Below, in pieces: positions 14,243-57,983 of a stretch of DNA of 57,983 nucleotides (position 1 is the first letter of the stretch; each line of letters begins with the position of its first letter). The notes beneath the pieces were generated by a model. The model saw nothing but the letters and a program-made list of their open reading frames with translations, had not been told where the DNA came from and searched no databases. Source of the DNA: Atractiella rhizophila (Eukaryota); the NCBI GenBank assembly GCA_021432655.1, contig MU271473.1:1-57983 (forward strand). Reading direction: 5' to 3'. The position numbers and the translations under genes are program-made.

Positions 14243-14496
14243 TGTTGGAGATCAATGATACAATGGAAAGGAGAGAGAGGAGATGGGAGTGTGGACACAA
14301 ATCTCGATCGTTTGCCTTGCGTTCCGGATGCCGTGCCAAACATGTGCACTTCACCGTTAGTCCGGACTTATAAAGCATGGCTATGGGTTTTGCTTTCTGT
14401 TTTCCCCAATCAAATATCTTTACTGTATTCGCATTTGCTTATACGTGATTGGGGAACCTTAGAATCTGCGAGTAAAGATAAGAGCTACTATTTTCA
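14243..14496 (+). repeat. 5' LTR of the Copia element
   Basis: TGTTGGAGATC...CTATTTTCA, repeated at 19603-19856. Confidence 0.95.
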
Positions 14497-14523
14497 TTTT
14501 GGTAGCGAGAGACGGTCGATACA

Positions 14524-19400: not shown

Positions 19401-19595
19401 CATTACCATTATACACGTGAGAAAGTGGAGGACGGGACCGTAGTCCTCGAATGGATACCAACGAGACAACAAGCAGCTGATCTTCTTACGAAGGGGCTCG
19501 CCGCGTCTATTCATTGGCACTTCTGTGCAAAGCTGGGGTTGACGGGCAAGGAGCAGTACGGTACGGAAGAGGAGGGAGGCGAGACGGTGAAGTGA
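16458..19595 (+). CDS. pol: Copia integrase-RT-RNase H, out of frame with gag-PR
   Basis: WHQRLGH...CVTC; DTWGP/HDQALEF/WER integrase core; YKARLVVRG, FDVSNAFLNG, LYGLCQAG, LHVDD; TRPDI; RNase H DADHA, SSTEAEY, DNQGA. Confidence 0.93.
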   Translation: MPLRIWHQRLGHPSNERLRLAIRGGVLSALQIKDSCNTSTLEQCVTCAKGKATYTKSKGPARIRDDKPGRTLGFDTWGPATVTSIQGFRYLFGAVDEASRYMIVGGMKLKSEAPSVLEGVRKAIKRELDVDLRRIRHDQALEFMSQVMKTWCEKHNISSMKTMAYAHDQGGLWERQWYTLFNIVRCLLLDSGLPLFLWYEALKVAVYLKNIMPTKGNVECQTPYEAFHGKKPDMTHIRVFGCLAAVTIMPEQRDSKLLPRAKLMYFVGYVVDGYGWRFWDPTKRKIVKAKSARFFEDKFYEKRTLEETMKIRDLEPEHFLPMLLPMRNEHTEEKGVLEGELDGKKVDTRPNQDVPELPRARPIPEVTETPGSPSLMRKRRDDVEEKRTHTEEAVLDAPPEDNTFVRDKVDEIETSIREARVKAEQAATYSPYRQRLRRGVRNTGRAWDYKKLNERGLYYAQIYGEDDLTGPVNDLSAEVRRNVNAFKLTHQTVEERDEEHEVYWTGSDDEPSFRQAIAGPDREKWIAAMIAELAALEAMGTWRGGLRTLPPGRRALGVKWVLLIKRDPAGEVLRYKARLVVRGDQQKAGVDYNETWAPTVRMSSVRAVLSISAQKGWIRRQFDVSNAFLNGDIEEEVFVRQPPGFVDENNPGGVHQLGKALYGLCQAGRQWWRKIHGVLTDMGFVRTTADEGVYTLRQNEETLILCLHVDDGLVAASSQDLVDAVFKKLSEFFTLRAGMAKVFLGIQIEGEDNSKRVKIHQEGYATKIVKKYLGDNVSPVQMPCESTKRLSTDMSPKSAEERERMKHIPYREAVGALIYLSTCTRPDIAFAVSEVARYCDQPGIDHWLAVKRVFRYVAGTLDHGLVYDGYAFPSPVLDAFVDADHAADPATRRSVSGVLFRNAGAAISWISKRQLAVAVSSTEAEYIAMSLATREAVWLRRLFNNLGYPAPGATLIRGDNQGAIRLASHPVAHGRTKHIGVHYHYTREKVEDGTVVLEWIPTRQQAADLLTKGLAASIHWHFCAKLGLTGKEQYGTEEEGGETVK

Positions 19596-19602
19596 GGGGG
19601 AG

Positions 19603-19856
19603 TGTTGGAGATCAATGATACAATGGAAAGGAGAGAGAGGAGATGGGAGTGTGGACAAAAATCTCGATCGTTTGCCTTGCGTTCCGGATGCCGTGCCAAA
19701 CATGTGCACTTCACCGTTAGTCCGGACTTATAAAGCATGGCTATGGGTTTTGCTTTCTGTTTTCCCCAATCAAATATCTTTACTGTATTCGCATTTGCTT
19801 ATACGTGATTGGGGAACCTTAGAATCTGCGAGTAAAGATAAGAGCTACTATTTTCA
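19603..19856 (+). repeat. 3' LTR of the Copia element
   Basis: Copy of 14243-14496, preceded by the PPT. Confidence 0.95.
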
Positions 19857-20379
19857 TTTATCCCTAAAATACACACATATAAGCATCTCCTTTGCAATCG
19901 ACAGTTCAACTGGCGGAAACAAATAATGCAGCGAGGCTGATTCATGTCAGGTAGTATCAAACACTTGAATACCCTCAGCATGAATCTCCTTCGCGAAACA
20001 TTCCGAAAGGTCGACCTGACGAAGGCTATCCTTTGGTAGGCAAAGCTCGACCGTGTTCGCTCGTTGAAAGTCGCAACTATAACCCGAGTTTGGACCTAGC
20101 ACGGATCCAAATGGGGAGTGAGCCAGAAAGGGGGCAAGCGAACGGGAGTTGATACTGCTAAAAACACATAGTTGCATAAGATAATAGGAATACCATGAGA
20201 CATAAGGAAGCATACCTAAAAACAGCCAAACTAGTTGCACGTCTAACCGGTGCGAACAGAGTCAAGTACCAGTATCTCTGTGACAGAAATAAGCGACAAG
20301 AATGTGGACTAAGAAGGCCTAAGCCTACCTTCTAGTCCGGGTGCTCTTATACAATAACAGGGGCTCTCAAAAGGGGGAA

Positions 20380-21240
20380 TGTTAAGGAACCTGAAGAGTG
20401 CCCATTGGCATAAGTAAGATGTAAGAAACTAAAGGGCTACTCACCTCGCACACTACAACACTGCGTAACGATTAAAAAGACGCTACGAGTAAAAGACAGA
20501 TGGTGGTTGTGTGCGAGGGGGAAATGGCTGAGACAGATTGGAAATTGAACACGCAATCAGATAAGTACTTCAACATAAACATTGCAGATTATCAATACTT
20601 CTAACCCGTATTACAGTGACGGTCAGAGGTATGGTAGGTAGCGCAGATGGCAAACTTGAAATACAAGCCATGAGCTTGGGGTTAGACAACATCAGATTGT
20701 CAGGCTTGCCCCTACGCATTACCGAAATGCACCATCCGAGGTCACGTGACCTACTCTACCACGTCATGAGATCACGTGCCTACCCATCACCGCTTTGCTC
20801 ATGTCTGCGCTGTTCACCGCTTTCCCCTCTCTCAGGCGAATCGCCGCTCAGCAAACCTTATATATTTCGCCGGTCTGCACCGTCTCCATTTTTGCCTTAT
20901 TGTCCTTTCTCACTAGTACTACCCAGTATATCTTATTTCCGAGTATTCCCTTTATTACTCTCCTGATCTATCTATCTTACATGTTTCAAGAAACGTATGT
21001 TACAGTTTATGGCAGTGCTATTCCGCTTGTATATATAGATCGGAGAGTAGTAGAGGTGACCTTAGAGTATTCTCTTAGGTTTATCTCCACTACAGGTTAG
21101 TCTTCATGTCATATCATGCACTTAGGTTTATCTCCACTACAGACGCATCGCCCATCGGCGACCGCACATAGTGTCAGCCCTAATACAGATTTCCTAAGCA
21201 GGCATGTGTGCCAACCGCAAGATAGAACCCACTTCTGACA
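20380..21240. mobile_element. Candidate solo LTR (about 370 bp of its own sequence) hosting a nested family-B LTR
   Basis: TGTTA...TGACA ends with flanks GGGAA/AGGAA (4/5 match); single copy in the window. Confidence 0.35.
20698..21185 (+). mobile_element. Solo LTR, family B, copy 1
   Basis: TGTCAGG...CCCTAATA with perfect 5-bp TSD CAGAT (20693-20697, 21186-21190); homologous to 54851-55340, 24767-25164 and 57751 onward. Confidence 0.88.
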
Positions 21241-21288: not shown

Positions 21289-23648
21289 TCTTCGCCGTCG
21301 CCAGTCTCACCCATTCGGTATTCTACTCCGGTGTCAGTGCACGTCCTTTGCAATTTGCAAAGAGATGAATGGCTTGGGAGAGGAATGTTATCTGATATAC
21401 TACATCAATGCTTACTTGAGAACTCTCCATTAGGTTCAAAGGAAATATTTACCTACAGCTATCAGTACTGGAAACAATGGAGTCACTCACGCTAGAGATC
21501 ACGGAGCAGGTGTAGGAGGTAGAAATGCTGGGGTGAAGGAGGTTCAATCTGTTTTGAACTTCCCTGTTCACTCTGTCAAAAATTCCGATAAGTGGAGGAA
21601 CCGACTGACGTTGTGGCATCGGTGCCACTGTCTGGTGTCAGCATTGGACGTCAATACAAGAGTAGTGAAGACTGACAAACGGAAAGCATCTATTGTTAAT
21701 AAATATCGAGAGGTCATCACATCCACGTCAAGCAATAGTGCTGGAAGGCTGTCTGGAATGCAGATTCCATGTTCCATGGTTTCGCTTAGTACCTCACAAA
21801 GGCTTGCCAGTTCATTCTCTAACTCATCCCAGCCTGTAAGCTCAAGAGTGAGCGAATGACGTTGACGATTGCTCATATTCCTTTGGCGTTATGGTAGGGA
21901 TGGAAATTTAGGACAAGGGGGAGGCGGTTTATATGCATCAATAGAAACAACGGTTGGGGAGAAAGAAAGCAGCCTGTAAAGATTCCTTTGTACCATAGCT
22001 GCCTTTGTTGACGGAACAAGACCCCTTTGTTCACGGTCAAAACATTTCTGCATATTCTCCACAAGTTGGATTTTTCACCTCTCCCTGTTGAGAAAGAATT
22101 AACTGATATGCGCAGGCAAATCATGAAGATGCAAGGTTCATGCATTTAGTGAACGAGGGCGGAACAGCATTGCACAGAAAGGAGCAAGGGAAGTTTCAGC
22201 CCGCATACTTGTTCTTCCTTTCACGATGAGATATCAAGCGAATGAGGTGTCATTTCTTTTACCACCTTATTTTTTTGGATGTGAAAAAAGCGAACCAAAA
22301 CGGAGCAAATTGGATGTGCAATGAAGAAATGGATGGAGCACAAATGGAAAGCTCTCACCAAGGTGTCACATCTCTACTAAGCGGATTATAGTGAGAAGAC
22401 CCATATGTCATGTTGGATTTATATTCCAACACCAGTGTCACAACATTCAGAGCATCAGAACTGTAATGACTAAAGCATCTGATGAAATGAAACCAGTCTG
22501 CAGACTAGGGATACATTCATGCACCATGCATCAAGTCCCTTGTTGTCGTCTAGTTTTCCTTTCAAAACTTTGCTACAGCATGCCCGGTACTCAGGCCGAT
22601 TCGAAAGACAGACCTTCATAACCCATCGTCTTTTGCCATAGTTGCACATTCACTTTCGTCCTCCTCACAAACCCGGACTCCTCATGGTGGCTTCATTCTC
22701 AGCGTCCTGTTTCTACACTTCTTCACAACCATCCTCCTCTGTTCCTGTTCCGATCCTGATCCCCAAAGAAGCAGGCAATAAATGTTGAGTAACTGAACCA
22801 TTCCACGATGTACGTCATAGCTATGACTTCAATCACATCAGATGTTGACAGTGTGTGTAGAAAGACTGATTGTGAAGAGTCTTCGAGCCTCATTCGTACC
22901 CAGTGAGGACAAAGGACACCAGCTTCTTTCAGTGTGTGATAAGTTGAAAAGTTGAACGGGGGCCGTTCTTAAAGTTGGCGTGCGGCAGTGAAGACCACAA
23001 GCTGACTCTGCTATCCATTCCTGTCCCGTCCCTAGTCACCCATTTTCAATGTTGTGTTTGACGTAGAGGATATGAACTGTGCACCTTGTTCTCATGTGTC
23101 CTTTAGAAAGCGAGTGGAAAATGTGAACATCTTCAGTGTCGCTCCTCTCAACCCTCCCGAATCTATATCCAGTAATCCCCTTCAATAACCCCCAACTCTC
23201 TCAACACACTTCTGGCCATACATATCTCTTCATCACACCATGCTCCAAAGAACAGCTCGATCGTCAACTGGCGTCCTCTCGTCGTCTTCACCTTTTTAGC
23301 TTCATCCACGGTCCACGGTATCCCCCTCCTCCTCCATCCCTCTATCCCCAAAGAACCAGCGGATGAAATCCGAGAATATAAACCCTGATCCCCAGTCCAT
23401 CACACAGTAACAAACATCTATACTCGCTATTGCTTTTGCATTTGTGAGTGTGGAAGAACTGGGGGGAAACGAGCCTTGAAGTTTCCTCACCACCGTCAAG
23501 GTAGACTTGGGTGAGATGTTTGAGGTGTGCGAAGTCGAGCGGTTTGGGAAGGATGGAGATCTTTCCATCAGGTGAGTAGGGTGTGAGTGTTATCGTGAGG
23601 TCTTTCAGCAGAGGCGACAGACAGGAACCTGAGACAGCGGGAGGGAGC

Positions 23649-24766
23649 TGTTGAGACTAGGATTCTTCCTATCACACTGGGAAGTGTACATTGCAGAAGA
23701 AACTCACCTAGGATTCTTCCTATCACACTGGGAAGCATGAAGGGAACAAATCCTTGTGAGGGAGGTATATGTGTATTTTACATTGTGGGGCATTGCGGGG
23801 CACTCATGTGACCGTGGTGTCACGGTATGTCGCTTATCTCCAACACTCCCACTCGACAAAACAGTGATGCTGAATCACAAAATCAAAAACTTGTAAAAAT
23901 CAAAAACTTGTAAAAATCAAAAACTAAGAAGTTGTTCTCCCACTTGATGAAGCAGTGCTTGGTTTTGACACCAAAGATAGTAAACTGCAGAGATATTCGT
24001 GTTTCCCCTTTTCTAATGGTTTCATGAAGATGTCTGCAATCATTTCTGTTGTGGGACAGTATCTGAATCGAGGATATTGTTCGCTTGTGCCTCTCCGATC
24101 CAAAATAACTTGATGTCCACATGCTTCATCTGTGAAAAATGTTCTGGGTCATGTGCATTTTCAAGAGCTGCTTTGTTATTGTTAAATATCGGTAGTGCCC
24201 GTTCTTACTTTCTTCCCATTTCTTCAAATAAACTCCGATACCAAACTCCTTCTACTCCACCATGTGTCATCGCTAAGAACTCGGCATTTCCTGTGGAGAG
24301 TGCTACTCCATCTTGCCGTTTGCTACTCCAACTGATCGGTCCTTTGCCTAAGAAGAAGGCAAAACACGACGTTGATCCTCGCGTGTCTAAGTCTCCGGCA
24401 TAATCTGCGTCTGTGTACCCACAGAAAAACGGACGGGAGTCCCCTTCACTTTGTAGGCCATATTCCAAACAATAATGTTTCGTGGTTCGCAGGTAACATA
24501 AAACCCTCTTAACTGCCTCCCAATGCTTAGGCCCTGGATTAGAAGAAAATTTCCTGAGGTGACCCACAACCCAAGCTATGTCAGGGCACGTTGCAATAGC
24601 AAGATAGATTAAGCCACCTATCGCATTTAGATATGGGACCTTTTCCATGTATTCAATCACTTCTAGTGTGTTTGGGCAATCTGCCTTTGAGAGCATGCTC
24701 CCTGAGTCGTAAGGAGTGGAGACTGGACGACCTTCATCTGTCATATGCATCAAGGTATCGATGTTG
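23649..24766 (-). mobile_element. 3' fragment of a second Copia family (LTR family C 23649-23845, PPT, RT/RNase H remnant)
   Basis: 197-bp TG..CA LTR, PPT GAGTGGGAG on the minus strand; ORF 24205-24753 with TCPDIA, YTDADYAGD, ISWSSKRQ; 17-bp tandem repeat at about 23879-23924. Confidence 0.9.
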
Positions 24767-25164
24767 TGTCAGGTTTGCATCTTACTCAAATCGGCGCCCG
24801 TTCGCCAGATTACATCTCCTATCGCCCATTTGTGTTCCCTGCGAAACGGCGCCGGTCGCCACTCTGTGTCTCCCGTTGCCCATTCGCCCATTTATGCCTA
24901 TCCTCCTCTTATTAACTCCACATAATCCCACCGTCACTTCCCCCTTTTAGTTCTCTTACACGTTTCGTCTGCTCTTCTCTACACTCTGTGGTAGTGCTAT
25001 TCCGCTTGTATATATAGATCAGAGAGTAGTGGAGGTGACCTTAGAGTATTCTCTTAGGTTTATCTCCACTACAGGTTAGTCTTCATGTCATATCATGCAC
25101 TTAGGTTTATCTCCACTACAGACGCATCACCCGTCGGCGACCGCACATAGTGTCAGCCCTAGCA
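24767..25164 (+). mobile_element. LTR family B variant (different 5' half, same 3' half)
   Basis: TGTCAGG...CCCTAGCA; about 24990-25164 is near-identical to 21011-21185; no TSD. Confidence 0.8.
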
Positions 25165-27850: not shown

Positions 27851-29332
27851 TTATTGCTTTTTGCATTTGTGAGGGTGTGGAAGAACTGGGGGGAAACGAG
27901 GTTTGAAGCCTCCTCACCACCGTCGAGTTCGAGGTAGCTGAGATGTTTGAGGTGTGAAAAGTCGAGTGGACTGGGTAGGATGGAGGTCTTTCCATCAGGC
28001 GAGTAGGGGGCGAGGGTGATCTTGAGCCAACCTAGAAGAGGGGGTAGACAGGAGCCTGAGATGGAGGGAGGGAGAGGACACAGTTCGGAGAGACGCAAAT
28101 CTGTGAGGGTGAGTGGGAGAGAGAGCGATGGGAGAGGTGGGTATGCGTGAAGCTGTAGGGAGTTGAGGTTAGATGATAATTGAAGGCCGCGTGATGTCGA
28201 AAAGGCAGAGTCCTCTACGTTGAAAGCACAGAAGGCTTTGATCCTGTCACCCATCCTCCACATAAAATTCTCGACCTCATCCTTCTTCCACTTTCTCCAA
28301 CCTTGCCCTTCAAACATTACGTCATCCAACCTCGTCAAGCTTTCAATCGCATGCAACACAATCTTCGCCTCCTCTTCATTCCACAATGCACACATGTACA
28401 AGTACGTAACATTCGGCAGCCCAGCGATTGACGTCTTGCGCCATCTCAACGCTGATGTCATCGTCAAGCCCACTCTCAAACCGGAGGGTTGTCCGCAAAC
28501 GCCCAGCATTAGGATAAGCTGTCAAACGAGCATGGAACTCTCCTGCACAGAAACATCTTCACTGAAATATGGGACTGAAACAGCCTTCCAAAGCTGACAG
28601 ACCTCAGAAAGTCGCTCGAAGGAAACGAGATATCCAGTACCTTCTATAAGCCTTTCAGATTCATCGAATGAAAGAATCTCGAAGATGAGTGAGAGGATCT
28701 CAGTAGGAAGGTGTGTGATACTGCATAAACTAATACATATAGGTCGAATTGTGGAGAGGGAGAGTTGGATGGTTGTCCCCAGACCGGTGGATGGATTGGT
28801 TGGCTCCTCCCATTCCTTGAGAGGAATGAAACACTGTTGATCCTTGGAGTATACGGCGACAGGTTGGAAGATGAGCTGAGAGCGATTCTCTGCAAGATGA
28901 AATGTGCATGTGAAGGGTTTCAGAGACATGTCCTCCAAATCCACGGATGCAAGACTTTTGGTATCCCCAAAAGTTACCATAATACTTTTCTCCTCCAACG
29001 CAATGCAAAGAATCATTGCACCGTCGGGTTCTCCTTCACTTTTCTGACCTTCTAGAGAGAAGTAGGACGATTTCGATGGACCATACTTGAGCTTCCAGAA
29101 TCGAATAGGTAAGACGAACGTGATCTGGAGCGTGTGAATTGATGGAGGTAGGCGAGAAATGAAAGAGGGAAGAATGGAGAGGTGGATTGGACTGCCATGT
29201 CGTAATGTTACAGGGGTTATGAGATGAGCCAGTGCGATTGACTCTGTCCCCTGACTGTCCTTCTGTAAAACTGATGTTTTTCTCCTTTTGATTCTGGGAG
29301 AGAAGACGCCGGACTAAACCCCACGAGTCCAT
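27567..29332 (-). pseudogene. Family F copy F3, full length but frameshifted (or with sequencing indels)
   Basis: Consecutive ORFs 29036-29332, 28522-29016 (THLPTEILSLIFEIL..VCQLWK), 27724-28509 (WNEEEAKIVL) and 27567-27995 (FICWFFGDRG) each match part of F4. Confidence 0.8.
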
Positions 29333-33660: not shown

Positions 33661-33855
33661 CTCTGCGCTCTCAAGGCTTTTTAGCCCTCCGTTGATCCAT
33701 CCCTGGCCTGGCCTCTGTTTCGCCCTTCCTTGCTCCTGCTTACCCTCTGGTTACACCATGGTTGGAAACTGTAATATTATGTCAGCAAAGCGATGCCGAT
33801 GGTACACATCCCTGGCCTGTTGCTGATTTTGAAAGGTTAACGTATGCTTAACCAG

Positions 33856-34741
33856 ATGCAAGTCGACGAGGCCGCCGCCTTTATCACTCTGCTGGATTGG
33901 TCCCCAATGGAACACAGTCATCTTCCAAAGCCGGAAGAAGTCTTCAGATCAAAAGTGCTTTCGGACCAGAGCACGATTGCAACTGTGAGGTTAGTCGACG
34001 GGCGAACTGTTGCGAAGTACGGCAGAAAGGTCTTTGTTCAAGAGGCCAACGCGATGATACTGGCGGCCAGCATCGGTGTGCCAGTCCCAGAGGTATGTTC
34101 TTTTAACTCTTACAAGGAAGCTTCATTGATGCGTGGTTCCGCGTCAGGTATACGGAGCCTATCGATACAACGAGCGGACCTTCATCTTCATGGCTTTCGT
34201 ACCTGGGGAGACGCTTGAACTTGCGTGGGACGGGATGACAGCCGAGCAGAAGGATCGTCTCATACTTGACCTTCGAGAAACACTTGCCTCTCTCCGAAAA
34301 CTCACCTCAACCTACGTCGGTGGCGTAAACAGGGCGCCGTGTGGTGACCCCCTTTTCATGTCCCATCCACACGTTGGCCCGTTTGAAAATGTCTCTGAAT
34401 TTTGTGACGGCCTCTTTGGCAACTTCTTGCATGTCGCCAGAGGATCAGCACATTCCCATCGCTACTTGCGCCGCTTGCTAAGGCGTTACGAACAGTACCC
34501 CATTGTGTTCACCCATGGTGACCTTTCACCTCGCAACATTATCGTAGGCGACGATCACACCTTGCGTGCCATAATCGACTGGGAAATGTCAGGCTTCATG
34601 CCAGCTCCTTGGGAATGGGTGAAAGCCGAGTTTGGGTCAAGAGAAATGCCAGCAGAATGGTTTGCATTGATGGATAGGTGGTTGGAACCTTATGATAAAG
34701 AAGCTCTTATGGACCGTCGATTCAGGATTTCTCTGGGTTGA
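33856..34741 (+). CDS. APH/choline-kinase-like phosphotransferase (APH-A), two exons
   Basis: VAKYG..EANAM..VPVPE|VY..FIFMAFVPGETL; Brenner motif FTHGDLSPRNIIV; IIDWEMSGF; intron 34093-34147. Confidence 0.9.
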
Positions 34742-34768
34742 GGAATATAGAACAGTTTATTTTACAGT

Positions 34769-35166
34769 TTATTGAGCATTTTTCAATGCAGGGGCAAATT
34801 CACAATAGACAAGCAATTCCAGATCAAATGGCTGTAGTATGATTTCCAGGATTGAATTCCAAACAAGAGAATATGCTTCTGATATGGATGCTTGAACCCA
34901 TTCCCAATGGACAGGCATGAACCCCGCTTTCCGCCAACCAACTACTGCACTTAGTCTCCCTCCTTGCATGATTATATGTTGGCGTTGAAAGTTCCCATGA
35001 GAGTTTGTCTTCACTACAAGCGATGAGGCGGCGATGTGAAGCTCTGAAGAAAGGATCTTGTCCGTTGTCGATTTCGATGGCACTCATGATAGCATTGTTG
35101 AAGTCTTCGATGTTGAATATGGGCCCGCGTTGCCATAATTCGCAAGATAAGTAATCGGCGCCTTGT
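34769..35166 (-). pseudogene. 3' half of a diverged APH paralog (APH-B), convergent with APH-A
   Basis: SHGNFQRQHIIM..AVVGWRKAGFMPVHWEWV aligns to THGDLSPRNIIV..AIIDWEMSGFMPAPWEWV; both catalytic Asp are replaced; the 5' half is absent. Confidence 0.75.
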
Positions 35167-35592
35167 TCCTCTGTCCTCTTCTCTCGTGATCAGAGTCCAA
35201 CTCACACTACTCCCCATCAGATCGGAGCAGAAGCTAAATCCGCCATCAGCCATTCTGGGTCCCTTCATGGCGAGGAGACGAAGAAGGACGAGAGAGAGAC
35301 AAACCATCATTTGCACTCCTCTCCATGGCAATGCACGAGTTCTGACCACCTACGCTCGCGTCCATCCACATCCTCAACGCTCAACATTCCCATATTTCCA
35401 TCTAGGAGTGTGGAAGAGAATAACGAGCAAACCGTATCCCTCGAAATACATCTGGAGATTCCACTTTGGATGTTCTTGGGCTGCTTCGCCGTGGTCTCGG
35501 ATGCTGGTGTTCTCGCACTGGGGGAGTGGCTGTGGGACCGTCTCACTTGGGTCTGGTTACGTCAAAGAAGAATAATGACTTCTACAATAAGT

Positions 35593-37749: not shown

Positions 37750-39190
37750 TCACACTGCAATCTTCCCACCATCATGACACTCAACGGCGCCAGACGCGAT
37801 AAAATCAACCTGGGTCAGTCGCCACCAGGGCAAAAGCTGACAAAGGCTCTTCCAGCAGGATTCCATGATTGACCCCAAACTTCTGCTTCCGCGATCAGGG
37901 GTCGGCTTCTTGGGTGCGGAATCACCATCTGAGCAAGAAACTCGCATCCAACCTCCGTGTCCTCTATTGCTCCGAACAGTCACCCCATCCTTTGTGAGCG
38001 CGAGCAAAGATGTCTTGGTCAGGTCGTCTTCCAGACGCACGTCCGCGATATTCAAGCGTTCCAGTGACTTCCAGGGTCTGTCTTGGATCCTCAGCGAGTA
38101 AAGACATTGAATGACAGCTTTAGTCGCGAAACTATTTTTGAACACATCCATATGTTTTGTTCCGTCAGGGAAGAAGGTGAAATCCTCAATGGGACACGGA
38201 GAAAAATAGCCGAGAATTTGAGAGATAGCATCGAAGCTTGAGTGTTGCAACATGTTGGTGATGGAGAGAGATGTCAACTTTGAGGCGGAACACCGTGGGA
38301 TTGAGAAAGGTTGGAAGAAGATGAAAGAGTCGAGTTTCAGAGTCTGGAGGGAACCCTGGCAGCCTTCGACCATCAAATCGATGGGTAGTTCACAGAGATG
38401 ACCCCTGCCTTCGAGAATAAGTTCCTTTGCCCCAAATTCCATATCTTTGATGGTCGCGCTGGTGGTTAGTATGGGTGGAGAAGCAGAAGACCTGATATGC
38501 AATTTATCCAGAAATCTCGTTCGATCCGAAAGGTCTTTCAGAAAGGGTCCCCTTATGGATGGAGTCTGGACCATGATGTCCTTGATGACACTCGGAGAGG
38601 AACAGGCAGCTCGAAGAAGGTGGAGAAACAAGTCATGCGACGGGTCTGCTGGATCTAGAATATCCAGAACCAGAAGGCGTTCTTCTGTGAAAGAGAGGTC
38701 AAAAGCCGGACACACATTCAACGTTTCGAAAGCCTGTAGACTTGAAATGCCAACTCATCGTCAACACTGTGTCGTTTGTGAATATTTGATTCAACTTCAA
38801 CTTCGTCTTCGAGAAACCTGAATGCCATCATGCGATCATCGACCTGGAAGCAAATCCGTTGGATGGACAAAGGGTCAACTCGGTCGGAGCTGAGAAAATG
38901 TGCAGAGCGACGGTGCAATTGTTCACATCACAAAGCAGGCGGCCAATGTCATCCCATGATGTAAAATTTATGCTCAGACATCTCACTTTCTGTAAAATGC
39001 AGCGCGGGAGGTCTTTGAACTGTGCATCGGACTCCCACCACGTCGGGTTAAAGGCCAATGTTCGAAATATTCGGGAGAGTAGAGCTTGTCGTAAACCCCA
39101 GTTACAGCAACTGAGATCTATACAGTCCGACACGGAGAGATGACTAGCTATTCCGTTTAGAAGCTCGTTGGGGAGGTTCAGGAGGGACAT
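37750..39190 (-). pseudogene. F-box family G copy G2, with two single-base deletions
   Basis: ORFs 38828-39190, 38718-38918 and 37750-38721 tile G1; the duplicated block about 37570-39552 matches about 11615-13570, including flanks. Confidence 0.8.
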
Positions 39191-40067
39191 TTTCAGTATG
39201 TTGTTTGGAACGGAGGCAGTAGCTCCTGCCTCTTATAGTGACTACGGATGTCATCCTGCTCTTTGTCCAGAGCCTTGTTGCCCTTGAGGAAAGACATGGT
39301 AGAGCTAGGTATGAGCCAGATTGCCTTTGTACTGACAGCTCAAAGGAACGTGAATGGGATCCTTCTCTTTGTTCACAGCCTTGTTGTCCTTGAGGAACGG
39401 TATGGGTAGAGTTACAACGTTAACAGGGTTGTAAATCTTTTGATAGGAAGTGTTAGACGTATTGCTTGAGAGAACCTTTGGGAGGCTTCGAAAGAAGGTT
39501 ATGAGATTTTTGACTGACCTTGAAGAATTAGACAATATAGCCGTCAGACTGCTGTTTTGTTCAGCATTCCTGTATTGGCTTTAGAAACCAGAAGCAACAC
39601 TTTACGGCGGACAATGCTGAAAATGCCCATCGTAATAGCTACCAGAAGAAAGACGAGGCGCGTCGTGAACTGCAAGGGTCACAAACACAGCTAGCCTTTC
39701 AAAATTTTTCCTACTAGCAGCATCCATAACACTTAACCTCTACGTCGACATCTCACCTTTCAGAGAAGAGGACATCTGAAGTAAAAACAAAGGGAGAGAA
39801 TAGTCCACCTGGGCTTTGTTCCCATTTCCAATTTCAACCCATCTGGCTCAGATCAAAGGGACAAAGCGATATTGACAATGCTTCATAAGAGGTAACTTAT
39901 GACAAATCCAAGTAATGTCGAACCATCAATTTACTAACTACTCCACGGATAAATATACACTATACACTCACCTCCGATCAGCTATCACCAACACAAGCAC
40001 CAAGCATCATCTTCCATCTTCCATCATTCCACATCAATAAACCCTCTTCTCGCCCGCCTGGAGCTCA

Positions 40068-41945: not shown

Positions 41946-42687
41946 GGCGGAGGTGGTGATTAGACGCCCACGACGTCGTTAGTCTTTATTATGTTGGTTT
42001 GAAGTTTCGAGCGATGTTGAAGGAATGAAAGTGAAGTTGGTCGTTCCTTTGGTCGTTGCAGGGCGACTTTGGTTCCGGCAGGAGCACATCAACGTTGCAT
42101 CAACTATGCTCCAATTACGACCAACAGCTAACTTTCTGACGTCGCTGAAACAATTTCCTAATTTCCGTCTGTTAAGAGATTGTATCTGACGCTGCAAATG
42201 GATCCATGAAGGGTGGACTCTTTCTAGCGGCCCTGGGTGAATGAAGGTGTGTGGCAAGATATCTTCTTTAAGCAAAGTAATCATTCACAAGCTGGCTGAG
42301 GATATTTACGTCCACTAGTCTATTATCAAAACCTCCTGAGCAATTTAGTGCGCTTGTATACGTTTGCGGCAGGTTGAAAACCGTTGCTTCAATGGCGCAG
42401 TCTAGTTATTTAGTCCGATTTGGGAAGGCTGAGAAGCGCAGGAATGAGCATCTCAGCCTTTTCAGCTATGTCAACGGAGGAAGCCACCCAAAGCTCTCTG
42501 CCGTTGGAACCCGTGTGATTGCTTTCAGGCTCAACTTGAAGTTGTTGAATTCGACGGTTGAACGGCGAAGAAACATAGGGTGTCTGGAGGACGATTGGCC
42601 CTTGCCATAGAAGGCATATGCTTAATTGCCCATCAAGCATCCAGGTTGATGGTAAAGACAAGTTGCAAGGTGCTTTTACCGCCTTCA

Positions 42688-42712
42688 NNNNNNNNNNNNN
42701 NNNNNNNNNNNN
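42688..42712. other. Assembly gap (25 N)
   Basis: Run of N. Confidence 1.
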
Positions 42713-45578
42713 TTTCCAGAAACAAGTTCTCCGGTTACGCTACTATGACCGTCGGTCGTAGCCACACGGTCAGGGTCTCCATACAAGAAAATTGAGAATG
42801 TTCCTTCGAAGTAACTACGCACCAAGGCGCAGTCCATATGCCCCGGATAGCTATGTTGCTCGTCTGGAAGTAGAAGTACCGAAAGCATGGACCCCTCTGC
42901 GAACTTGAACGCACCCTGCCCTACTGTCGGCTCGTCTTCCTAGCAGAGTATGAACTGGAAGCCCTTTGTGAACGGAGAGAGGCTTTTGAGTGGAGTTGGA
43001 TGCAGCCACCGCATTTGTCCCGCGGCACACCACTGGGGGAAAAGTACAGGGTAGGTGTGCAACCGGGCAAACTTTTACAGAGACTTAAAACACTGCCGGA
43101 GAAACCGTTGAAGAACGTACAGCGGTCTCCTAGTCGTGTAAGGGTAGCAATGAACGCGGCGAACGATTCCGCAATGCTTGTCATGGGGTAACACAAGTGG
43201 GTACCACTGGAAAGTGGAGCGTTGTAATAGCATCCGCTGCTAGTGTGGAACGCACGGTATTAGCTGACCCTTTACAGTCCGAAGTACGGTCGAGGAACCC
43301 TTACCCACTTTCGGCTCAAACCCAGTTCTCTTTACGGTCGTCTTACCAAACGTAACTACCTATCCACCAACCTTGGAATACTATTTCTTCGAGAATACCT
43401 GGCAGCTAAGTCCTAAAGAGACCCAACTCCTTATATCTTGTCAAATAAAATGTCAAATAACTCGTAAAAAGTTACGTCCCCGTTTAAGTGTTATCTGTTC
43501 GTTAAGGTCTAGTTTACCGACATCATACTAAAGGTCCTAACTTAAGGTTTGTTCTCTTATACGAAGACTACACCTTCCAACTTGGGTAAGGGTTGCCTGT
43601 CCGTACTTGGGCGAAAAGCGGTTGGTTGATGACGTGAATCAGAGGGAGGAACGTACTAATATACAACTGCAACTTTCAAGGGTATTCTTTTATGGCCTTC
43701 AAAACAGAAGCGATGTTCGCTACTCCGCCGCTGCTCCCCGAGACTTCTTTCCTAAAGCAGGCAACAGCTAAAGCTACCGTGAGTACTATCGTAACAACTT
43801 CAGAAGCTGACAACTTATACCCGGGCGCAACGGTATCAAGCGTTCTATTCATTAGCCGCGGTACAAATGCGGTGGCTGCATCCAACTTCACTCAAAAGCC
43901 TCTCTCCGTTCACAAAGGGCTTCCAGTTCATACTCTGCTAGGAAGACGAGCCGACAGTAGGGTAGGGTGCGTTCAAGTTCGCAGAGGGGTCCATGCTTTC
44001 GGTACTTCTACTTCCAGACGAGCAACATAGCTATCCGGGGCATACGGACTGCGCCTTGGTGCGTAGTTACTTCGAAGGAACATTCTCAATTTTCTTGTAT
44101 GGAGACCCTGACCGTGTGGCTACGACCGACGGTCATAGTAGCGTAACCGGAGAACTTGTTTCTGGAAAGACGGCATGAAGCGTTGTCAAGCGGGCAGCTG
44201 ATCGGAGTGTCAACGTTAGCACGAGACCAGGCTTTCGTGAAAACTAGACTTCTGAAGAAGGCCGAAACCTTCTACGGACACAAGGTAACCCCTGGTTAGG
44301 TCGTCTCACTATTTCCGTCGGAGCAGCTGAACGTAGACCAATTCGTATGCAATTGGAAAGTTTTAGTCGTTGTCCGGTCCCTACACATGGTAGCCGTAGC
44401 GAAACGACTGTATTATAATGTCAAAGGTTGGTACACAACCTCTATTCGCTGTTTGTCACTGTTAATACCAGTGTACTTACGGGGCGTTACGGGGCGTTAC
44501 ATTTTATGTGTGTATATGGGGGGAGTGTTCCTAAAAAAGGGAAGTGCGAAGGGTCACACTATCCTTCTTAGGATCCACTCAAAGAAGACGTTACATACGA
44601 AGGGTCACGCTATCCTTCTTAGGATCAGAGTTGTCCAATACTCGGGTTTTGAGATCGGCCTCTTTTGGGAATAGAGCGTGGGCGTGGATTGTTGTCTGAA
44701 ACCTGGGATAGTTGTTCCTCGTCCCCAACCTCTAATCTAATAAAAGTCGTCCCCTAGCCACGTATGGGATCTGATCGTCCTAGCCGCATAAGACTGATCC
44801 TCGACTTCCATGATAGTTGTCACTCACTAGTTTAGAACTATTCCTATTTCCTCAACACAACCTCACGACGTAAACCTTTGACATTTGTTCAGAGATGTGG
44901 TCCGTTGCATGGTTCAGTGCCTTCTTCAGGTATCCGGAAGAAGAACCCTGGAGACAAATGTCATGCGGGAACACTATAACAGTCTGTCAGAAAATCTGAC
45001 GAAATAGTGTATCGTTCCTGCAGTTAGTAGGATATTATCACGTCATTGGGAGTTGAAACCTCAAGAACAATTCAAACCAATGTTTGACATATAGAGTAAG
45101 GTTTGTTGGATAGTTATTTGGCGTCTAATCAGAGTTCTACAGAATGCGAAGGTGAAAGCAGAGACTTTTTGAGTTACTATGTTTGATGCGTTATACCAGG
45201 CTTCTTTACAAACGGAAGGAGGTCTGCTTTGCTCGTCCCTCTTAGTAGGAACCCTGTCTTTGAGCAGGACATCTGGTAAGAGAAGGACTCTTTGGATGCT
45301 CATAGCTAATAGTCTTCGTTGAACTTCACCTCTTCTCTGTCTGTCTAACCCTACTCGCTTTTCTTCGTCGATACCCTATAGATGCAGAAAGCTAACTCTT
45401 ATCAGCTGCCGTACTTCGCAACAGTTCGCCCGTCGACTAGCCTCACAGTTGCAATCGTGCTCTGGTCCGAAAGCACTTTTGATCTGAAGACTTCTTCCGG
45501 TGTTGGAAGATGAAGATGACTGTGTTCCATTGAGGACCAATCCAGCAGAGTGATAAAGGCAGCCTCGTCGACTTGCAT
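42713..45578 (-). CDS. APH-A', near-identical second copy; 5' part 45578-45406 normal, remainder 42713-43428 mirrored
   Basis: Same intron and same HGDLSPRN and DWE motifs; only in-frame indels seen; TGA at 43426-43428 in the complement. Confidence 0.88.
43456..44335. CDS. Chimeric APH gene (APH-A 5' half + APH-B 3' half), read right to left on the displayed strand without complementing
   Basis: MQVDE...YVGGVNMAP then ITYLANYGNAGPYSTVEDFNNAIMSAIE...GFMPVRWEWVQ...ALKNAQ*; lacks HGD and DWE. Confidence 0.78.
44435..45405. mobile_element. 5' end of a family-C Copia element inside the mirrored block (LTR 44435-44634, PBS 44635-44646, gag from 45138)
   Basis: Complement reads TGTTGGAGATAAGCGAC...TCTCAACA GGTTATGAGCCC, matching the LTR at 23649-23845; gag MSYASTFVSEKLNDTNYAIWSEEMFAFLQTK...WDERKEAAMGYLRLSIE. 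Confidence 0.9.
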
Positions 45579-48500
45579 CTGGTTAAGCGTAGGTTAACCT
45601 TTCAAAATCAGCAACAGCCAGGAAAATGTCCACTCCCGACTGGGGGGCTCCGGAACCTCTGGAAAGGATAGAGTCACGGAGGGAAAGTTCAGCTCCTCGA
45701 ATCGACGCATCTCCAGAGTGGTCTAGTCTCTCCCTTCCTCCCTTCCTCCAGTCCTCCCCTCCCTCTGGTGCGCAAGCGCCCAGAGGTAATAAGACCTCCC
45801 GTCTTCTCCCGTCCTCCAAGTGCCTCCACCAGCCTCCAAGTTCCTCCGATGCCGCTTATTAAATACAGGGATTCCCTTTTCCGCTTTCGCTTGTGCTCCA
45901 TAGAATAATGAAGCAATGAATGTAATTGAAAGAAGAGTAGTTTATACAACTTTGGTGCGCAAGAGTCGGTAAAGGCTGAGGCGTCAAGCTGAAATGAGCA
46001 CACTAGCAATAAAGAGGAGTGGGAAATCAACATCCAAAATATGTAAATGAACTGAAATCCTTTCAATACTGGGACCTAAATTACACTGCAATTCAAACGA
46101 GGGCTAGAGCAGAGCACTGTAATATTGATTCTTCGTCCCGTAATGATCTGATTGCGAGCGGCGCTACATAAGCTTAGAAGAACTAGGGTAGGTAGTTGGC
46201 ACTTAGGATGGCGGAGGAGGCAGCGGAGTAGGCAATAGTGGAGGGCAAGCCAATGGGCGAGGCGGCGAAGACGGCGGCACGAGTGGGATGGGCGAGTGGG
46301 TTGGCAGGGACCTCTTTCTGACCCCTTTCCGATCCCTCTGTGCCACAGTCCATCTTCTGCGCCATCACGCGCCTCTACTACTCTTCGCGATTGACTTGCG
46401 ATGTCTACTGTGAAGCAAGTTGGTTAGAGTCGATAGAGGGTTGAAGCGGGCTTGGGGATGTTAGAGAGCGAGGTGGAACGAGAGGCAACGATGGTTGAGA
46501 AAAAGCACACCATGCTTCTCCGACGTCCATCCCTCAATCCTCGAGCTGCTCTGTCACTCCTGTCCTCTGCTTTCGTGATCAGAGTCCAACTCGCACTCGG
46601 CGTTCGCTTCGGAGGGCAAAGAGTTTTTTTAGAGGAGTGGACAGTGATCGATGATGGATGACGAGAGGAGCACGGAGGTGAGAAGAGAGGGATGTTGGAA
46701 CGAGGAAGGCAGCGCGAGGTAAACGGGAAACGGGAACCGGGAAAGCGGGATAAGATACAAGGAGGTATTGAGACTGGTGCAGGACGGCGCTTCCGCGTCT
46801 CCTTTGCTCCCAACGCTTCCCACGCGCTCCTCTCTCGCTTCGTAGCCTCGGCAGCGAAGGTACGTACGGAGGGTCGAACAGTGCTGAGGTGGGATGTGAA
46901 GAGGGCGAAGAGGGTCGACGGCGGACAGGGTGACGGGGGGAGGAACCTAATACCTATATCAGTAAACGCAAATGAAAAAGAGGGAGAGGGAACGGGAAGG
47001 TCACCTCTTCTCTCGTACCTCTTTGCCCCCTCCATCTCTGTCACACTTCGCCTTCCATTATGTCCCATGCTGTTGGTAATACCTCTCATTCCCTCCCTTC
47101 TTCGCGCTGATTGTACTTGTCCGTTCATCACTTGCGCACACCCTCCCTACAGTCTCCCCTCCATGCGCCTCCCCTCCCCGCCGGGTCTGCTCTGTCACCA
47201 GCTGTCCAGGTGTTTCGGTCCGTACCGACTCCATTGGGCCGTAGTCTGGTAAGGTCATCAGCTAAAGAGGACGATGGGTTAGCTGACGTGCAAGGGAACT
47301 GTGGAGGAGAGAGCAGCAGGAGCCTGAGCCGGAGGGCTGATGAAGGAGGCTATCCACGATGAAGGAGACCAGCGAGACACGAGAGAGGTGAGACTGGTGA
47401 GGTGTGGGATTGCATGAGATAAACGGCTAACTCAGAGTTGGAAGGGAGGGAAGGACGTGGGACGTGGGAGAGACGATGGAGGACGTGAAGAACAGCGGTG
47501 TGAGTGTACTACTGACTGCATGTGGCGGCGGAGGAGATGAAGGAACTGGTGGTCACGAAGGCGGACTAAGAAGAAGACGGTCAAACTCACGACGCGCCGC
47601 GTTCTCAATGTGCAAGATCTCACCACAGGCCCGTCTGTCATCCTTTCCTTCATCTGTCTAAGTTGCAACTCTAATCAAAGGATAGATGCAGGATGGGAAG
47701 ATCGCATCAAAGCAGCAATGGTGTAGGGTCACGAAACTGCCAGCGTAGTCCTTGCTAGTACGCATCCACCTCTCCCTTCCCGTTTCTCACCCTCTTACTA
47801 AGAAAATGAACCTAGTTTGACCCAAATCTGTCCGTTCTGAGGTACATGTTCAGGCCCTAACTGCATTGGATGGCACGACGGAACTCTCCAAGGATTCTAC
47901 AAGCTCAGAGACGACCTGTACGATGCTTGCTCTGGTCTACTCCTCTCTCCCATCGCTGATTTATCAATGTCTGTACTGAAAGCGCCTAAAAACTTCAGGA
48001 CGTGAATTCCGTTCCCTCTGCTCCGTCGAATATCTTACATAACGAAACCGATGGATAGAACATGTTCGAGGAGAAGGAACGCTCCGTGGCTGCCAAAAGC
48101 GTAGTGCGTATCAGTGGATGAAAGCTGTGTTGAATGTCGCCATCTGCAGGTTCGTCTCCCTCCCTCTACCCATAGAATAAAAGAATAATAACGTTGTTGT
48201 GAAGAGTTGGTCCCGTGAGACTCCTCGCACAGTCAGTCGCACGGCCTCAGCGACTAGAAGAAGGATAATCGCCGTCGACATCTAAGAGCGTATGCTTCTA
48301 CTGCCTGTACGCATTCTGAAGCTTCCTGGTTGCTTATTTATTTGCGGATAGGTAAGGGCTGGGAGAGTTGAGCAAATGATTGATTTAGTTGCTATGTCGA
48401 CTTTAAGTCGCTCATCACTTATATCTATAAGTCTAAAGAGATAATTTGGGCCGTTACGATAATGCAGGTTCATCTCCCTCTTCTCTCCGCCTTGATGTCA

Positions 48501-49863: not shown

Positions 49864-52800
49864 TAGGGACTCGCATGAATGTGAATAATTCATGAACAGT
49901 CACCGTATCGTTCACCAAAAAGTCATGAATAAGCTGTTCATGAACTGGTGAACTGGTGACTGTGACTGTGACATGAACTGTGAAACGTCAGGCTGGAGAA
50001 ATTCTTGAGTCATGACTAGTCATGAATAAGTCACCGCGCACAACTCATGCTGGCCGAAGTTACAGCCATCGTGATTTCCACAAGCCTCGTCTCTTCACGG
50101 ATTCGGCTTCGGCCCTTGCTCGACCGGCTGAGGTTTTTGAGGTAGGCTTTTCGCATCAACCAGCAAGAAGAGCGAAATGACTGCTCTGACTGCTCAGGAA
50201 GGCACTGACGCTGGTCACCCAATCACAATTGACGAGGCTCAGACCAGCAAGTAGTCAAGGGGGGACTCCATCTCTGGTAAGCTTTTTCTGCTGTATTTCC
50301 AACTTTCTCATGCAACAACAGAACCTGTCATTGCTCCGAAGCAAAAGCGACTCATGTCAAGAAGGATAAGTCACATTTGGACGAAGAGGCACACTTGTAA
50401 GTACCTTTACTCTCCATTTGCTTCTCTGAACATAGATCAGGGAAGCTGAAATCAAATCTTGGAAATCCTCTGTCTATGCCCATTACGATGCTCCGATGAT
50501 TGTCAAGAAGGAAGAAGTGGAGGGAAGTGAAAAGAAGGAGGTTATTTATTATCGCTTTACTTGTAAGGTGTTTAAAGATCATGAAGTTGACCGGAAAAGG
50601 GATGGGTTTGCAAGTGGGGCTGCACTGACGTCGCAACTTTTGGCAGGTGTTCAGGCATGTGAGGCAAAGCATGCGAAGTCCAGTGAGCGTTCAACAACAC
50701 TGAATGAATTTGGGTATGCCTTCGGGGACAAGAGTGATGAAAAGAAGGATTCTGGAGATGGAAAGAAGAGTGGCATTCCGTGCTTCCCTTACTCCCCTCA
50801 ACGCTTCCGATTCTGGCTCGCTCTCCTCTGTGCTCGACGCAAACGGCCGTTCAATATTGTTGAGGATTACGAGCTCCATGTCATCTTCAAGATGCTTCGA
50901 CCTGATGTGCACCTTGTTAGTGGTGACCAAGTCTCGAAGGATCTCTGGAACATCTATACTCGAGCTGCCCAGATTATTAAGGATGTTTATTTGAAGGTAG
51001 AAGTTTCTCCTCATTTCGCATCTCACTTTCCGATAGTTGTAGGATAGGACATTGACGGTTTCATGTTTCTACTGATGCTTGGACCTCGAGGAACCACATG
51101 GCTTGGCTTGCCATGCTGGTTCATTATTGGTCGGGAACTGAGGTAAAAGAGATCATTTTAGAGTTTGTCCGGTACAGTGTTAGAACCCTGCTGTGTCCTG
51201 TATGCTGATCTTCCTCACAGGCTGAGTGATTCGCACACGGGGAGATATTTGGCCAGAGAGATTGCGAAGGTGTTGGAGCGGTATGGTACAGACGGAAAAG
51301 TCAGTCTTGCTTGTCCTTTGCCATGTCCATCGAATTGAACATGGAAATTAGTTGATGGGACTGGTGATCAATAGTGCATCAAACAACGACACAATGGTTT
51401 CGGAACTCAAGCTCTTGCTCCCCTCCTTTAAGGGGCAAGAATACCAAATCCGGTGCCTCAATCATGTCCTCAACCTGGTTGCAAAGGTATGCTCCTTAAT
51501 TTCTAATCACGTTTCTTACCTGACATCCTTTTAGGCTCTGATCTCGCCCTTCATGAAAGAGAAGAAAAGAAGGGCGAAGGGCGAAGAAACTGAGAGATTT
51601 GAAGATGACGGAGCTGTAAATATCAGCAAGGAAGAGGCTGCCATAATCAATAAGATAGTGGCAAGCCATGATACGGCACAGAAAGCTATGGGTGATGAGA
51701 TTATTGAAGAGATATGCGATGAAGTGTTGAAGGAACTGGAACAGGAGGATCCATTGAGAGCTGATGATAAGAGACTGAACATCAAGTTCAGTACGGAGGA
51801 GCACCAAGCTGTTCATGGATGTGTTCAAAAGGTCCGTATAGCTTGATCATGTATTCATTGCTTAAGACATTGCAGATTCGGGAACTGGCTCACAAGATCG
51901 TTAATAGTAGCTCGATGAACACGGAATTTCAGCGTCTTGTGGAGCGATTTTACATGAACCTTACAGATGCACGACTTCCAATCTGAGAGGTTGTCACTTG
52001 GTGGAACAGTCTCTTCCTCTTCCTCGAACGAGCCCTCTTGCTCCGACAAGCTTTCGATGGTCTTACAGAACAGAGCTCATTCAAACTTAAGAAGTATGAA
52101 GTGATGGAACCCGAATGCAAAGTCCTAGGTGAATTGCGGTTCTCAAGGTTTATCAATTCCTTCGATTTAATCTGTGCAAGATGCCTTTCTATCGAGCCAC
52201 AGTCAAGCTATCTACCAAGAAACGGGTGCTCCTTACAGACGTAATCCCTTATCTCGATAGGTTTGACCATAACCTTCGCAACATCAAGCTTAACCGAAAT
52301 GCAAATCCGTTTATTCGGTTGGGTGCTTGTCGCGCGATTACGGTTCTTAATAAATATTATTCAAAAGCTTGTCAGGTGACAAGCATGTATAAGTTGGCAA
52401 TGGGTTCGTCCCTCTTGGTTATTATTACTGAACTGATGTGAACTTCTAGTACTTCACCCTTATCACAAACTCAAGTACTATGAACATGCAGGGTGGCTCA
52501 TCTCCTGGATTCAAGATATTCGGACATTGCTACACGAGGAGTTCAAGACCTACCATCCTACTCCTTCCGCAGAGACCATAGTTGCAACTGATCTGCCAGA
52601 TGAGGAGGACTCTGACGCAGAGGAACAGTTTCCATATCGAAAAGATTATCAACAGACGGTTGAGACGGAATATGATGAGATCAGGCGGTACTTAGAAGAT
52701 GACCTGGAGAAGACACGCAAGGACTTCAATGTACTGGCTTGGTGGAATGGGGAACGGCAAGGAAGCCAGTATCTTAATCTTGCGAAGCTACCAATAGCTG

Positions 52801-53249
52801 TGCTCTCTGGCCCTGGTGTGTACCATTTCCTTACTCCTTGCCTTCTGGTGACCCTTCCTTAGTGACCAGTACCAATGTGGAATGTGCTTTCGGTGCAGGA
52901 GGACTTCAGATCACCGGCCTCCGGCACAATCTATCACAAGATTCATTCTGTGCTGCTATGGCTTTAGGCTCCTGGCATGATGCTGGATTGCTGTGTGGGA
53001 CAGACAAAGAGCTTTTTGATTACTTTAAGACATAGTAGACATAAACACACATACAAACCAATCAGAACTACTCTTTCCTGCCCTGCTTCGTTACTGAATC
53101 ATGAAGTGTCATGAATAATCACCTGAGAATCATGACTTGTCATGAATGTAATGTATGATCCGTGACATGACTGATGAATTGAAATTTTGGTTGAAAAAGT
53201 CATGACTAGCCGTCATGAACTTATCATGACCTTGTCACACGAGTCCCTA
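49864..53249 (+). mobile_element. hAT-superfamily DNA transposon
   Basis: TIR TAGGGACTCG...CGAGTCCCTA; 8-bp TSD ATCTTAGC/AGCTTAGC; many subterminal TCATGA motifs; transposase inside. Confidence 0.92.
50496..53035 (+). pseudogene. Intron-containing hAT transposase, inactivated
   Basis: RPFNIVED, TDAWTS, SHTG, NSASNNDTM, RCLNHVLNLVAK, VTWWNS, VLAWW..YLNLAKL..TSTNVECAF; in-frame TGA at 51984-51986. Confidence 0.85.
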
Positions 53250-54845: not shown

Positions 54846-54850
54846 GTGCT

Positions 54851-55340
54851 TGTCAGGCTTGCCCCTATGCATTACCGAAATGCACCATCTGAAGTCACGT
54901 GACCTACTTTACCACGTCATGGGATCACGTGCCTGCCCATCGCCGCTTTGCTCGCGTTCGAGCTGACTGTTGCTTTCCCCTATCTCACACGAATCGCCGC
55001 TCAGCAAACCTTAGACATTTCGCCGGTCTGCATCGTCTCCATTATTGCCTTATTATCCTTTCTCACTTGTACTGCTCAGTATATCTTACTTCCGAGTATT
55101 CCCTTTATTGCTTTCCTGATCTAGCTATCTTACATGTTTCAAGAAACGTATGTTACAGTTTATGGCAGTGCCTTTACATATGTATATATCCATAGAGATG
55201 TAGTGGTGGTGACCTCAGAGTATTCTCTTAGGTTTACCTCCACTACAGGTTAGTCTTCTTTTGCCATACTATTCCTTTAGGTTTACCGCCACTACAGACG
55301 CATCGCCCATCGGCAACCGCACAAAGTGTTTGCCCTAACA
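54851..55340 (+). mobile_element. LTR family B, copy 3
   Basis: TGTCAGGCTTGCCCC...GCCCTAACA, colinear with 20698-21185; no TSD. Confidence 0.88.
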
Positions 55341-57392: not shown

Positions 57393-57750
57393 GAAAGCTC
57401 ACCTCTGCTTGTACCTTATTACAAAATTTGATGTACAAGGGATAGCATCTTCTCCCCCACTCCAACACATCGGCGAATCACCCGAAATTTACCTCTTTTG
57501 CCTTTTCCACGTCCCAATAAACAGTGTTCTTTTTCCTATCCTTGTTCACCAGGACGAAGTCGAAAAGTTGAGCGTCAGTCGTTATTTTATGAGAAGAAGA
57601 GGAATGTGCATTTCGGTAATATGTAGGGGCAAGCCTGACAACACCCCCCAAATTTCTAACTAGTGTGTGTGAGTCACGGAATTTTAAGATTAAGGTTCGC
57701 GGCTAGTTTGGACGAAAATTCTTTCCAGGTTCTTCCACCATCTCCCTCCC

Positions 57751-57983
57751 CTCCGAAGTCATGTGACCTAACTTTACTACATCATGAGATCACGTTCTCA
57801 CCCATCGCCGCTTTGCTCATGCCTGCGCTGTCAGCAGCTTTCCCCTTTCTCACACGAATTGCTGCTCAGCAAGCCTTACAAATTTCGTCGGTCTGCATCG
57901 TCTCCATTATTGCCTTATTATACTTTCTCACTATTGCCGCTCAGTATATCTTATTTCTGAGTATTCCCCTTATTACTTTCCTG
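57751..57983 (+). mobile_element. LTR family B, copy 4 (runs off the window; 5' boundary uncertain)
   Basis: tccgaagtcatgtgacct...catgagatcacgt...cgctttgctc...gagtattccc matches 20735-20965. Confidence 0.85.

Follow-up and report, generated by a model that had tools for sequence, protein, structure and literature searches.

Two gap-flanking blocks of an Atractiella rhizophila scaffold are written complemented without reversal

This analysis concerns a stretch of 57,983 nucleotides from Atractiella rhizophila (assembly GCA_021432655.1, contig MU271473.1, positions 1 to 57,983 of the forward strand; hereafter the window) and, within it, two blocks that each touch a run of Ns with their left edge (7301|7302 and 42712|42713). 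Both blocks are very probably genuine, accurate genomic sequence that software wrote into the scaffold wrongly, by complementing it without reversing it; these mirror blocks (block 1 and block 2; Table 1) are artefacts, made during assembly, gap closing or scaffolding, and not a biological feature. Biologically they hold nothing new, and their value is that of a quality-control flag. The complement-only and reverse-only transforms of a block are equivalent strings, read from opposite strands, and block 2 as displayed is at once the plain reverse of the true plus strand and the plain complement of the true minus strand read outward from 45406. To our knowledge, templated DNA synthesis yields antiparallel complements only, and a parallel complement is impossible on any strand; the string displayed in a block must therefore have been created by software. 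The window otherwise has a gene content of basidiomycete type, with a Ty1/copia element, F-box genes, a centrosomin/Mto1-like gene and APH-type kinase genes.

The most direct evidence comes from a BLASTN comparison of the window with its own complement-only and reverse-only versions (matches of at least 80 bases, E<1e-10). As the initial annotation had anticipated, this self-alignment singles out block 2: four distinct complement-only matches were obtained, all four with exactly one partner in 42713-45405, and none was found elsewhere in the window. In the longest, 42713-43866 corresponds to 34026-35167 as a complement running in the same direction (96.97% over 1,155 columns, 1,927 bits), in agreement with the earlier pairing of 42713-43861 with 34026-35161. 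The wider claim that the 2.7-kb block as a whole is the complement of 34.0-35.2 kb stands for the first 1.15 kb and falls for the remainder. There, 43855-44437 matches 33753-34339 read in plain reverse (97.3%), 44169-44380 pairs with 45406-45622 as its complement (94%), and 44434-44635 reproduces 23648-23846 backwards (92% over 202 columns); the last match bears out the earlier pairing of a mirrored long terminal repeat (LTR) with 23649-23845. Differences between block 2 and the paralog at 34 kb (gene A) are nearly all substitutions, with none to few in the coding part and no indels in the first 890 columns; judged from its sequence, the block 2 copy is a true paralog and not a noisy read. None of the six open reading frames (ORFs) of block 2 as displayed has a Pfam match, while paralog A does match APH.

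The right edge of block 2 is located to the base by the same paralog. An untransformed self-comparison pairs 45406-45622 with 33811-34025 as an ordinary reverse complement (92.3%), and the match of the block takes over from 34026, so that the junction 34025|34026 of the paralog corresponds to 45406|42713. When the reverse complement of 45406-45471 is followed by the plain complement of 42713-42777, the joined sequence aligns end-to-end with 33960-34090 with three substitutions and no gap; in the sequence as displayed, the paralog alignment ends exactly at 45405. The kinase gene (gene B) that had been described as breaking at 45406 and resuming at 42713 without a lost base does so both in this gapless alignment and at the protein level, where, by tblastn, the normal minus strand carries P0114 residues 17-53 at 45518-45408 and the complement-only window carries residues 55-76 at 42714-42779 with 100% identity.

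Read in the mirrored sense, block 2 yields most of gene B and a third, complete paralog, gene C, for both of which the normally written gene A provides an internal control. The ORF of gene A at 34130-34738 matches Pfam PF01636 with 47.5 bits (cut-off 23.2; E=2.6e-12). HGDLSPRN and IDWE occur in the translation of gene A, the motifs of the family being a catalytic-loop HGDxxxxN and a downstream DWE. The proteins used for comparison, P0113-P0115, are among the nearest named proteins of the database listings and are labelled Atractiella rhizophila; P0113 carries PF01636, whereas P0115 is without a precomputed Pfam domain. For gene B, tblastn against the complement-only window places P0113 residues 41-75 at 42714-42818 and residues 62-259 at 42832-43425, the latter with 98.99% identity and no stop. 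For gene C, P0115 residues 1-91 align to 44335-44063 (85.7%), residues 78-233 to 44049-43582 (77.8%) and residues 190-270 to 43712-43473 (82.7%), and a mirror ORF of 202 amino acids runs through 43459-44064. Over 42714-43425 and 43473-44335, database proteins thus find their match in the complement-only window and none in the normal one. Genes B and C are assigned to the family by their tblastn matches to P0113 (98.99%) and P0115 (77.8-85.7%), the profile score being that of gene A only.

Genes B and C are convergent, with alignment ends approximately 47 bases apart, and the gene A locus has the same convergent layout with a truncated partner (35176-34786). Genes A, B and C share 97-99% identity in their 5' halves, upstream non-coding sequence included, which suggests recent duplication or gene conversion.

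Block 2 also contains a 314-base inverted repeat (42713-43026 against 43855-44168, 99% complementary), a feature that it shares with fold-back (palindromic) chimeric long reads. The arms differ from such reads, however, in carrying four substitutions (and no indels) and in that the second arm belongs to gene C; because that gene is complete, its 3' half matching P0115, the repeat reflects a genuine pair of convergent genes, and a fold-back chimeric read was rejected as its origin.

Beyond gene C lies the mirrored LTR-like repeat, which, like its normally written copy, has TG...CA terminal inverted ends. The initial annotation had further placed a primer-binding site and a gag start next to it, and of its five statements on the block this is the one that fails, the other four having held: the bases after the mirrored LTR are identical to 33757-33791, where no LTR stands in front, and they are the 5' flank leading into gene C. 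No gag ORF follows the mirrored LTR, the ORF at that place being the start of gene C as aligned to the first 91 residues of P0115; the ORF at 24017-24400, after the normal copy, has no Pfam match, and the window holds no tRNA gene with which a primer-binding site might be compared.

The same transform is found at block 1, in the centrosomin/Mto1-like gene. Its best relative, P0001, an Atractiella rhizophila-labelled protein from another contig, aligns on the normal minus strand with residues 1-294 (9963-9115) and 273-457 (8950-8297), whereas residues 458-713 find a counterpart solely in the complement-only window, where they run left to right over 7303-8234; five more distant homologs show the same complement-only behaviour over shorter stretches. 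On the left side of gap 1 protein alignments are again in normal orientation, P0003 residues 861-1275 and P0007 residues 701-1108 aligning to 6592-5153/5174 and P0002 extending to 6610, and with the block read mirrored the gene is colinear over the gap, in the order N-terminus, block, gap, C-terminus. Thirteen seam offsets were tried, and exact P0001 sequence across the junction was obtained at 8298|7302 alone; block 1 is therefore 7302-8297. Long stretches of the block agree with P0001 nearly residue for residue and without a frameshift, one frame change falling at 7986/7992, and the unmatched stretches hold stop codons and look like introns. P0001 itself ends far short of its orthologs of approximately 1,200 amino acids, and its unusually W- and R-rich C-terminal tail (residues ~625-755), which aligns in a different DNA frame from the rest, has the look of a gene prediction carried on across an intron.

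Both blocks also stand out in composition, independently of any homolog. Each position was scored by the log-odds of its k-mer against the reversed spelling, with strand-symmetrised counts taken from the window minus the candidate regions. For 500-base windows and k = 3, 4 and 5, 12 of approximately 230 windows fell below the mean minus two standard deviations, four of them in 7001-8250, seven in 42751-44750 and one at 20001-20500; a leave-block-out version gave 11 negative values among 116 500-base blocks, the strong ones at the same places. An unsupervised minimum-sum search on 4-mer log-odds ranked 42650-45438 (-217.5) and 6592-8256 (-134.1) first, followed by 20002-20494 (-45.1) and by segments of -36 to -30, compared with a worst segment of -29.5 +/- 6.7 on average, and of -58.2 at the minimum, in 100 simulated 57-kb sequences drawn from an order-3 model of the window. 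Per kilobase, the left gap flanks score +68 and +75 and the blocks -129 and -77. The swapped GATC/CTAG and AT/TA ratios that had been predicted for gap flanks were likewise found, both being flipped in the two blocks: TA/AT rises from 0.66 outside the blocks to 1.45 in block 2 and 2.85 in 7302-8200, and GATC/CTAG changes from 214/92 to 7/9 and 0/7, respectively.

The third-ranked segment, 20002-20494, has a TA/AT ratio of 1.65 (0.66 elsewhere), three CTAG against one GATC, a score at the ~2% tail of the simulation and, in the mirrored reading only, an ORF of 121 amino acids at 20108-20470; it has no homolog to confirm mirroring and no adjoining N. It is a weak candidate for the mirrored fill of a fully closed gap, or else the copia 3' LTR is simply followed by a stretch of odd composition.

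The geometry is identical at the two gaps: a mirrored block with a base-exact seam stands on the right flank in two cases out of two, and reverse-like k-mer composition is found on the left flank in neither. Each block also occupies its proper place in the scaffold. The earlier placement of both mirror blocks directly right of an N-gap is thereby borne out, as is its attribution to one systematic cause tied to gaps. Un-mirrored, the blocks share with the left gap flanks only chance matches of 10-14 bases, and the gaps are therefore truly open.

An origin in a gap-extension or gap-closing step would account most simply for this arrangement. The downstream contig would have been extended leftwards into each gap, and the extension would have been kept as an outward-reading string that was complemented without reversal at writing. 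In consequence, the base truly abutting 45406 (or 8298) is displayed at the gap edge, 42713 (or 7302), and the true gap-proximal end at 45405 (or 8297). The 5' end of a downstream contig needs a reverse-complement operation that an upstream contig does not. Gap 1 would be a partly filled gap with a reduced estimate, and gap 2 one in which the fill went beyond the estimate and which was set to the minimum size. Overfilled gaps are reset to 25 N by the long-read gap filler PBJelly, and a minimum of 25 N is used by other programs too.

The likeness of the 25-N gap to the placeholder of a long-read gap filler, noted in the initial annotation, is circumstantial. In the available portions of its description, PBJelly treats 25 or more Ns as a gap, adds sequence at the ends of the contigs on either side, and speaks of an overfilled gap where these extensions outgrow the predicted size without overlapping (PMC3504050); the 25-N run here is the smallest such gap, and the left flanks do not overlap the blocks. 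A default minimum gap of 25 also appears in the accessible text of a second source (PMC6240028). The likeness does not extend to the transform, since complement-only behaviour is not described for PBJelly in those portions, and the consulted parts of the gap-filler papers contain no such error (PMC6240028; PMC8848313; PMC3504050).

Several observations weigh against the account given thus far. The literature search found no complement-only or reverse-only blocks described in assemblies, and no known bug can be named. The sample consists of two gaps only. The blocks are far more accurate than PBJelly fills, whose identity was measured at ~88-95% in the portion of the study available (PMC8848313), and so are hard to reconcile with a raw long-read patch. 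Polishing is impossible for mirrored sequence, yet the blocks are without indel noise, which likewise argues against such a patch, so that no one program is named here as the source. Two of the 500-base blocks of the leave-block-out test, 42501-43000 and 44501-45000, did not score negative. Lastly, the far-end 770 bases of block 2 (44636-45405) carry no orientation signal of their own, having a k-mer score of -2.7 and no match by blastn or tblastx in either orientation; they are counted as mirrored by continuity, because the seam sits at 45405|45406.

Alternatively, the blocks might be not extensions but small contigs of 996 and 2,693 bases, given minus orientation as the scaffold FASTA was put together from a layout file, complemented without being reversed and joined at zero length to the next contig. 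This would entail the same transform, and both pieces begin at a gap edge and are as accurate as ordinary contigs. Nevertheless, the right ends of the blocks are free of N and join base-exactly in the true order, as a contig extension would, whereas independent contigs are normally separated by a gap or an overlap; the layout-file bug is accordingly an unlikely, albeit live, variant of the same artefact explanation. Less credence still is due to the idea that the original assembly was correct and that the mirroring was added afterwards by a submitter script, a format conversion or the handling of the window. Nothing in the window dates the error, and its sequence is all upper case and unmarked, but the blocks start precisely where a gap ends, and nothing in the sequence marks the seams at which they stop, which indicates a program aware of contig ends. 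That the displayed sequence is real DNA, such as an inversion or rearrangement of the kinase locus, is supported by the genuine rearrangements there (three APH copies, a convergent pair and a truncated copy) and can be dismissed with near certainty, given that an inversion produces a reverse complement whereas in normal orientation the self-comparison gives the block interior no match but the 314-base repeat shared by genes B and C, all matches between the block and outside sequence need the complement-only transform, composition is reversed, two genes cut at the seams read on perfectly once mirrored, and established knowledge offers no templated mechanism for a parallel complement. A biological inversion was rejected on the same grounds, there being no reverse-complement match of the block to outside sequence and no normal-orientation match at all for 44400-45405.

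Among known errors, a software-made complement resembles the mis-oriented contig, or inversion misassembly, in which a gap-adjoining segment is likewise wrongly oriented and genes crossing its edge are broken. In the ordinary case, however, the segment is a reverse complement that still maps to reads and homologs, whereas neither strand of a mirror block matches until it has been transformed. The same transform is used on purpose in benchmark decoys, which, in the available part of their description, are reversed and non-complemented, non-biological and of the same composition as the original (PMC11099658); those decoys are deliberate and labelled, while the scaffold blocks are unlabelled.

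As written, 3.7 kb of the 58-kb scaffold are illegible. The seams cut the APH-type kinase gene B and the centrosomin/Mto1-like gene, and the complete paralog gene C disappears from view; wherever the same step ran, the assembly will give wrong gene counts, synteny, paralog analyses and repeat annotation. Conceivably, although we hold this only tentatively, the error is systematic, such that each gap extended from its downstream contig by this pipeline carries a complement-only block, possibly in other assemblies too. Should that be so, fully closed, N-free gaps would be affected as well (20002-20494 being the weak candidate), and the blocks would be invisible to read-free quality control, unpolishable because reads do not map to them, and a silent cause of truncated or deleted gene models. 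A general and cheap check is to compare an assembly with its complement-only copy, or to compute forward/reverse k-mer log-odds at gap flanks; both blocks were separated cleanly in this way here.

Table 1. Gaps, mirror blocks and associated features of the window (positions of the whole stretch).
Feature	Position	Strand or reading	Remarks
N-gap 1	6620-7301		682 N
N-gap 2	42688-42712		25 N
Mirror block 1	7302-8297	complement, left to right	996 bases; mid-part of centrosomin/Mto1-like gene, legible solely in this reading
Mirror block 2	42713-45405		2,693 bases; basis: complement-only BLASTN, seam alignment, k-mer scores, tblastn
Far-end 770 bases of block 2	44636-45405		No match; k-mer score -2.7; dinucleotide ratios near 1
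Gene A (APH paralog, normally written; internal control)	33856-34738	+	Pfam PF01636; P0113 and P0115 alignments
Truncated APH 3' half downstream of gene A	34786-35176	-	P0115 residues 136-270 at 35176-34786; counterpart of gene C 3' half
Gene B, 5' part, ends at seam	45406-45578	-, normal orientation	P0115 residues 1-55 at 45578-45408 (tblastn)
Gene B, continuation in block 2	42713-43425	complement, left to right	Rest of exon 1 to ~42818; exon 2 = 42832-43425, ends at stop
Gene C (third complete APH paralog)	43473-44335	plain reverse, right to left	P0115 tblastn
LTR-like repeat, normal copy	23649-23845	+	TGTTG...CAACA ends; purine run directly upstream
LTR-like repeat, mirrored copy	44435-44635	plain reverse of 23649-23845	
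Centrosomin/Mto1-like gene, N-terminal part	8298-9963	-	P0001 alignment; Cnn_1N PF07989, E=6.6e-23 in ORF 8225-8956
Centrosomin/Mto1-like gene, C-terminal part, left of gap 1	5153-6610	-, normal orientation	Mto2_bdg PF12808, E=1.2e-05

Elsewhere in the window, an apparently intact Ty1/copia retrotransposon occupies 14243-19859; its LTRs (14243-14499 and 19603-19859) are 99.6% identical, its ORFs of 660 and 1,069 amino acids carry the domains zf-CCHC, Pol_BBD, gag_pre-integrs, rve, SH3_retrovirus and RVT_2, and it looks like a recent insertion. Three pairs of duplicated segments of 1-2 kb share 76-79% identity (11611-13569/37566-39552, 27573-29373/29916-31711 and 48660-49682/26838-27848), and F-box or F-box-like ORFs lie on some of them (11937-13262, 38831-39232 and 28525-29313); these segments are a locally expanded gene family. 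A repeat of approximately 490 bases is present in four full or partial copies of 84-96% identity (20697-21183, 54850-55338, 57749-57983 and 24980-25161) and may be the LTR of another element. Finally, the ORF at 52437-52859 (+) matches a hAT-family C-terminal dimerisation domain (E=2.8e-05) and is probably the remnant of a hAT DNA transposon.

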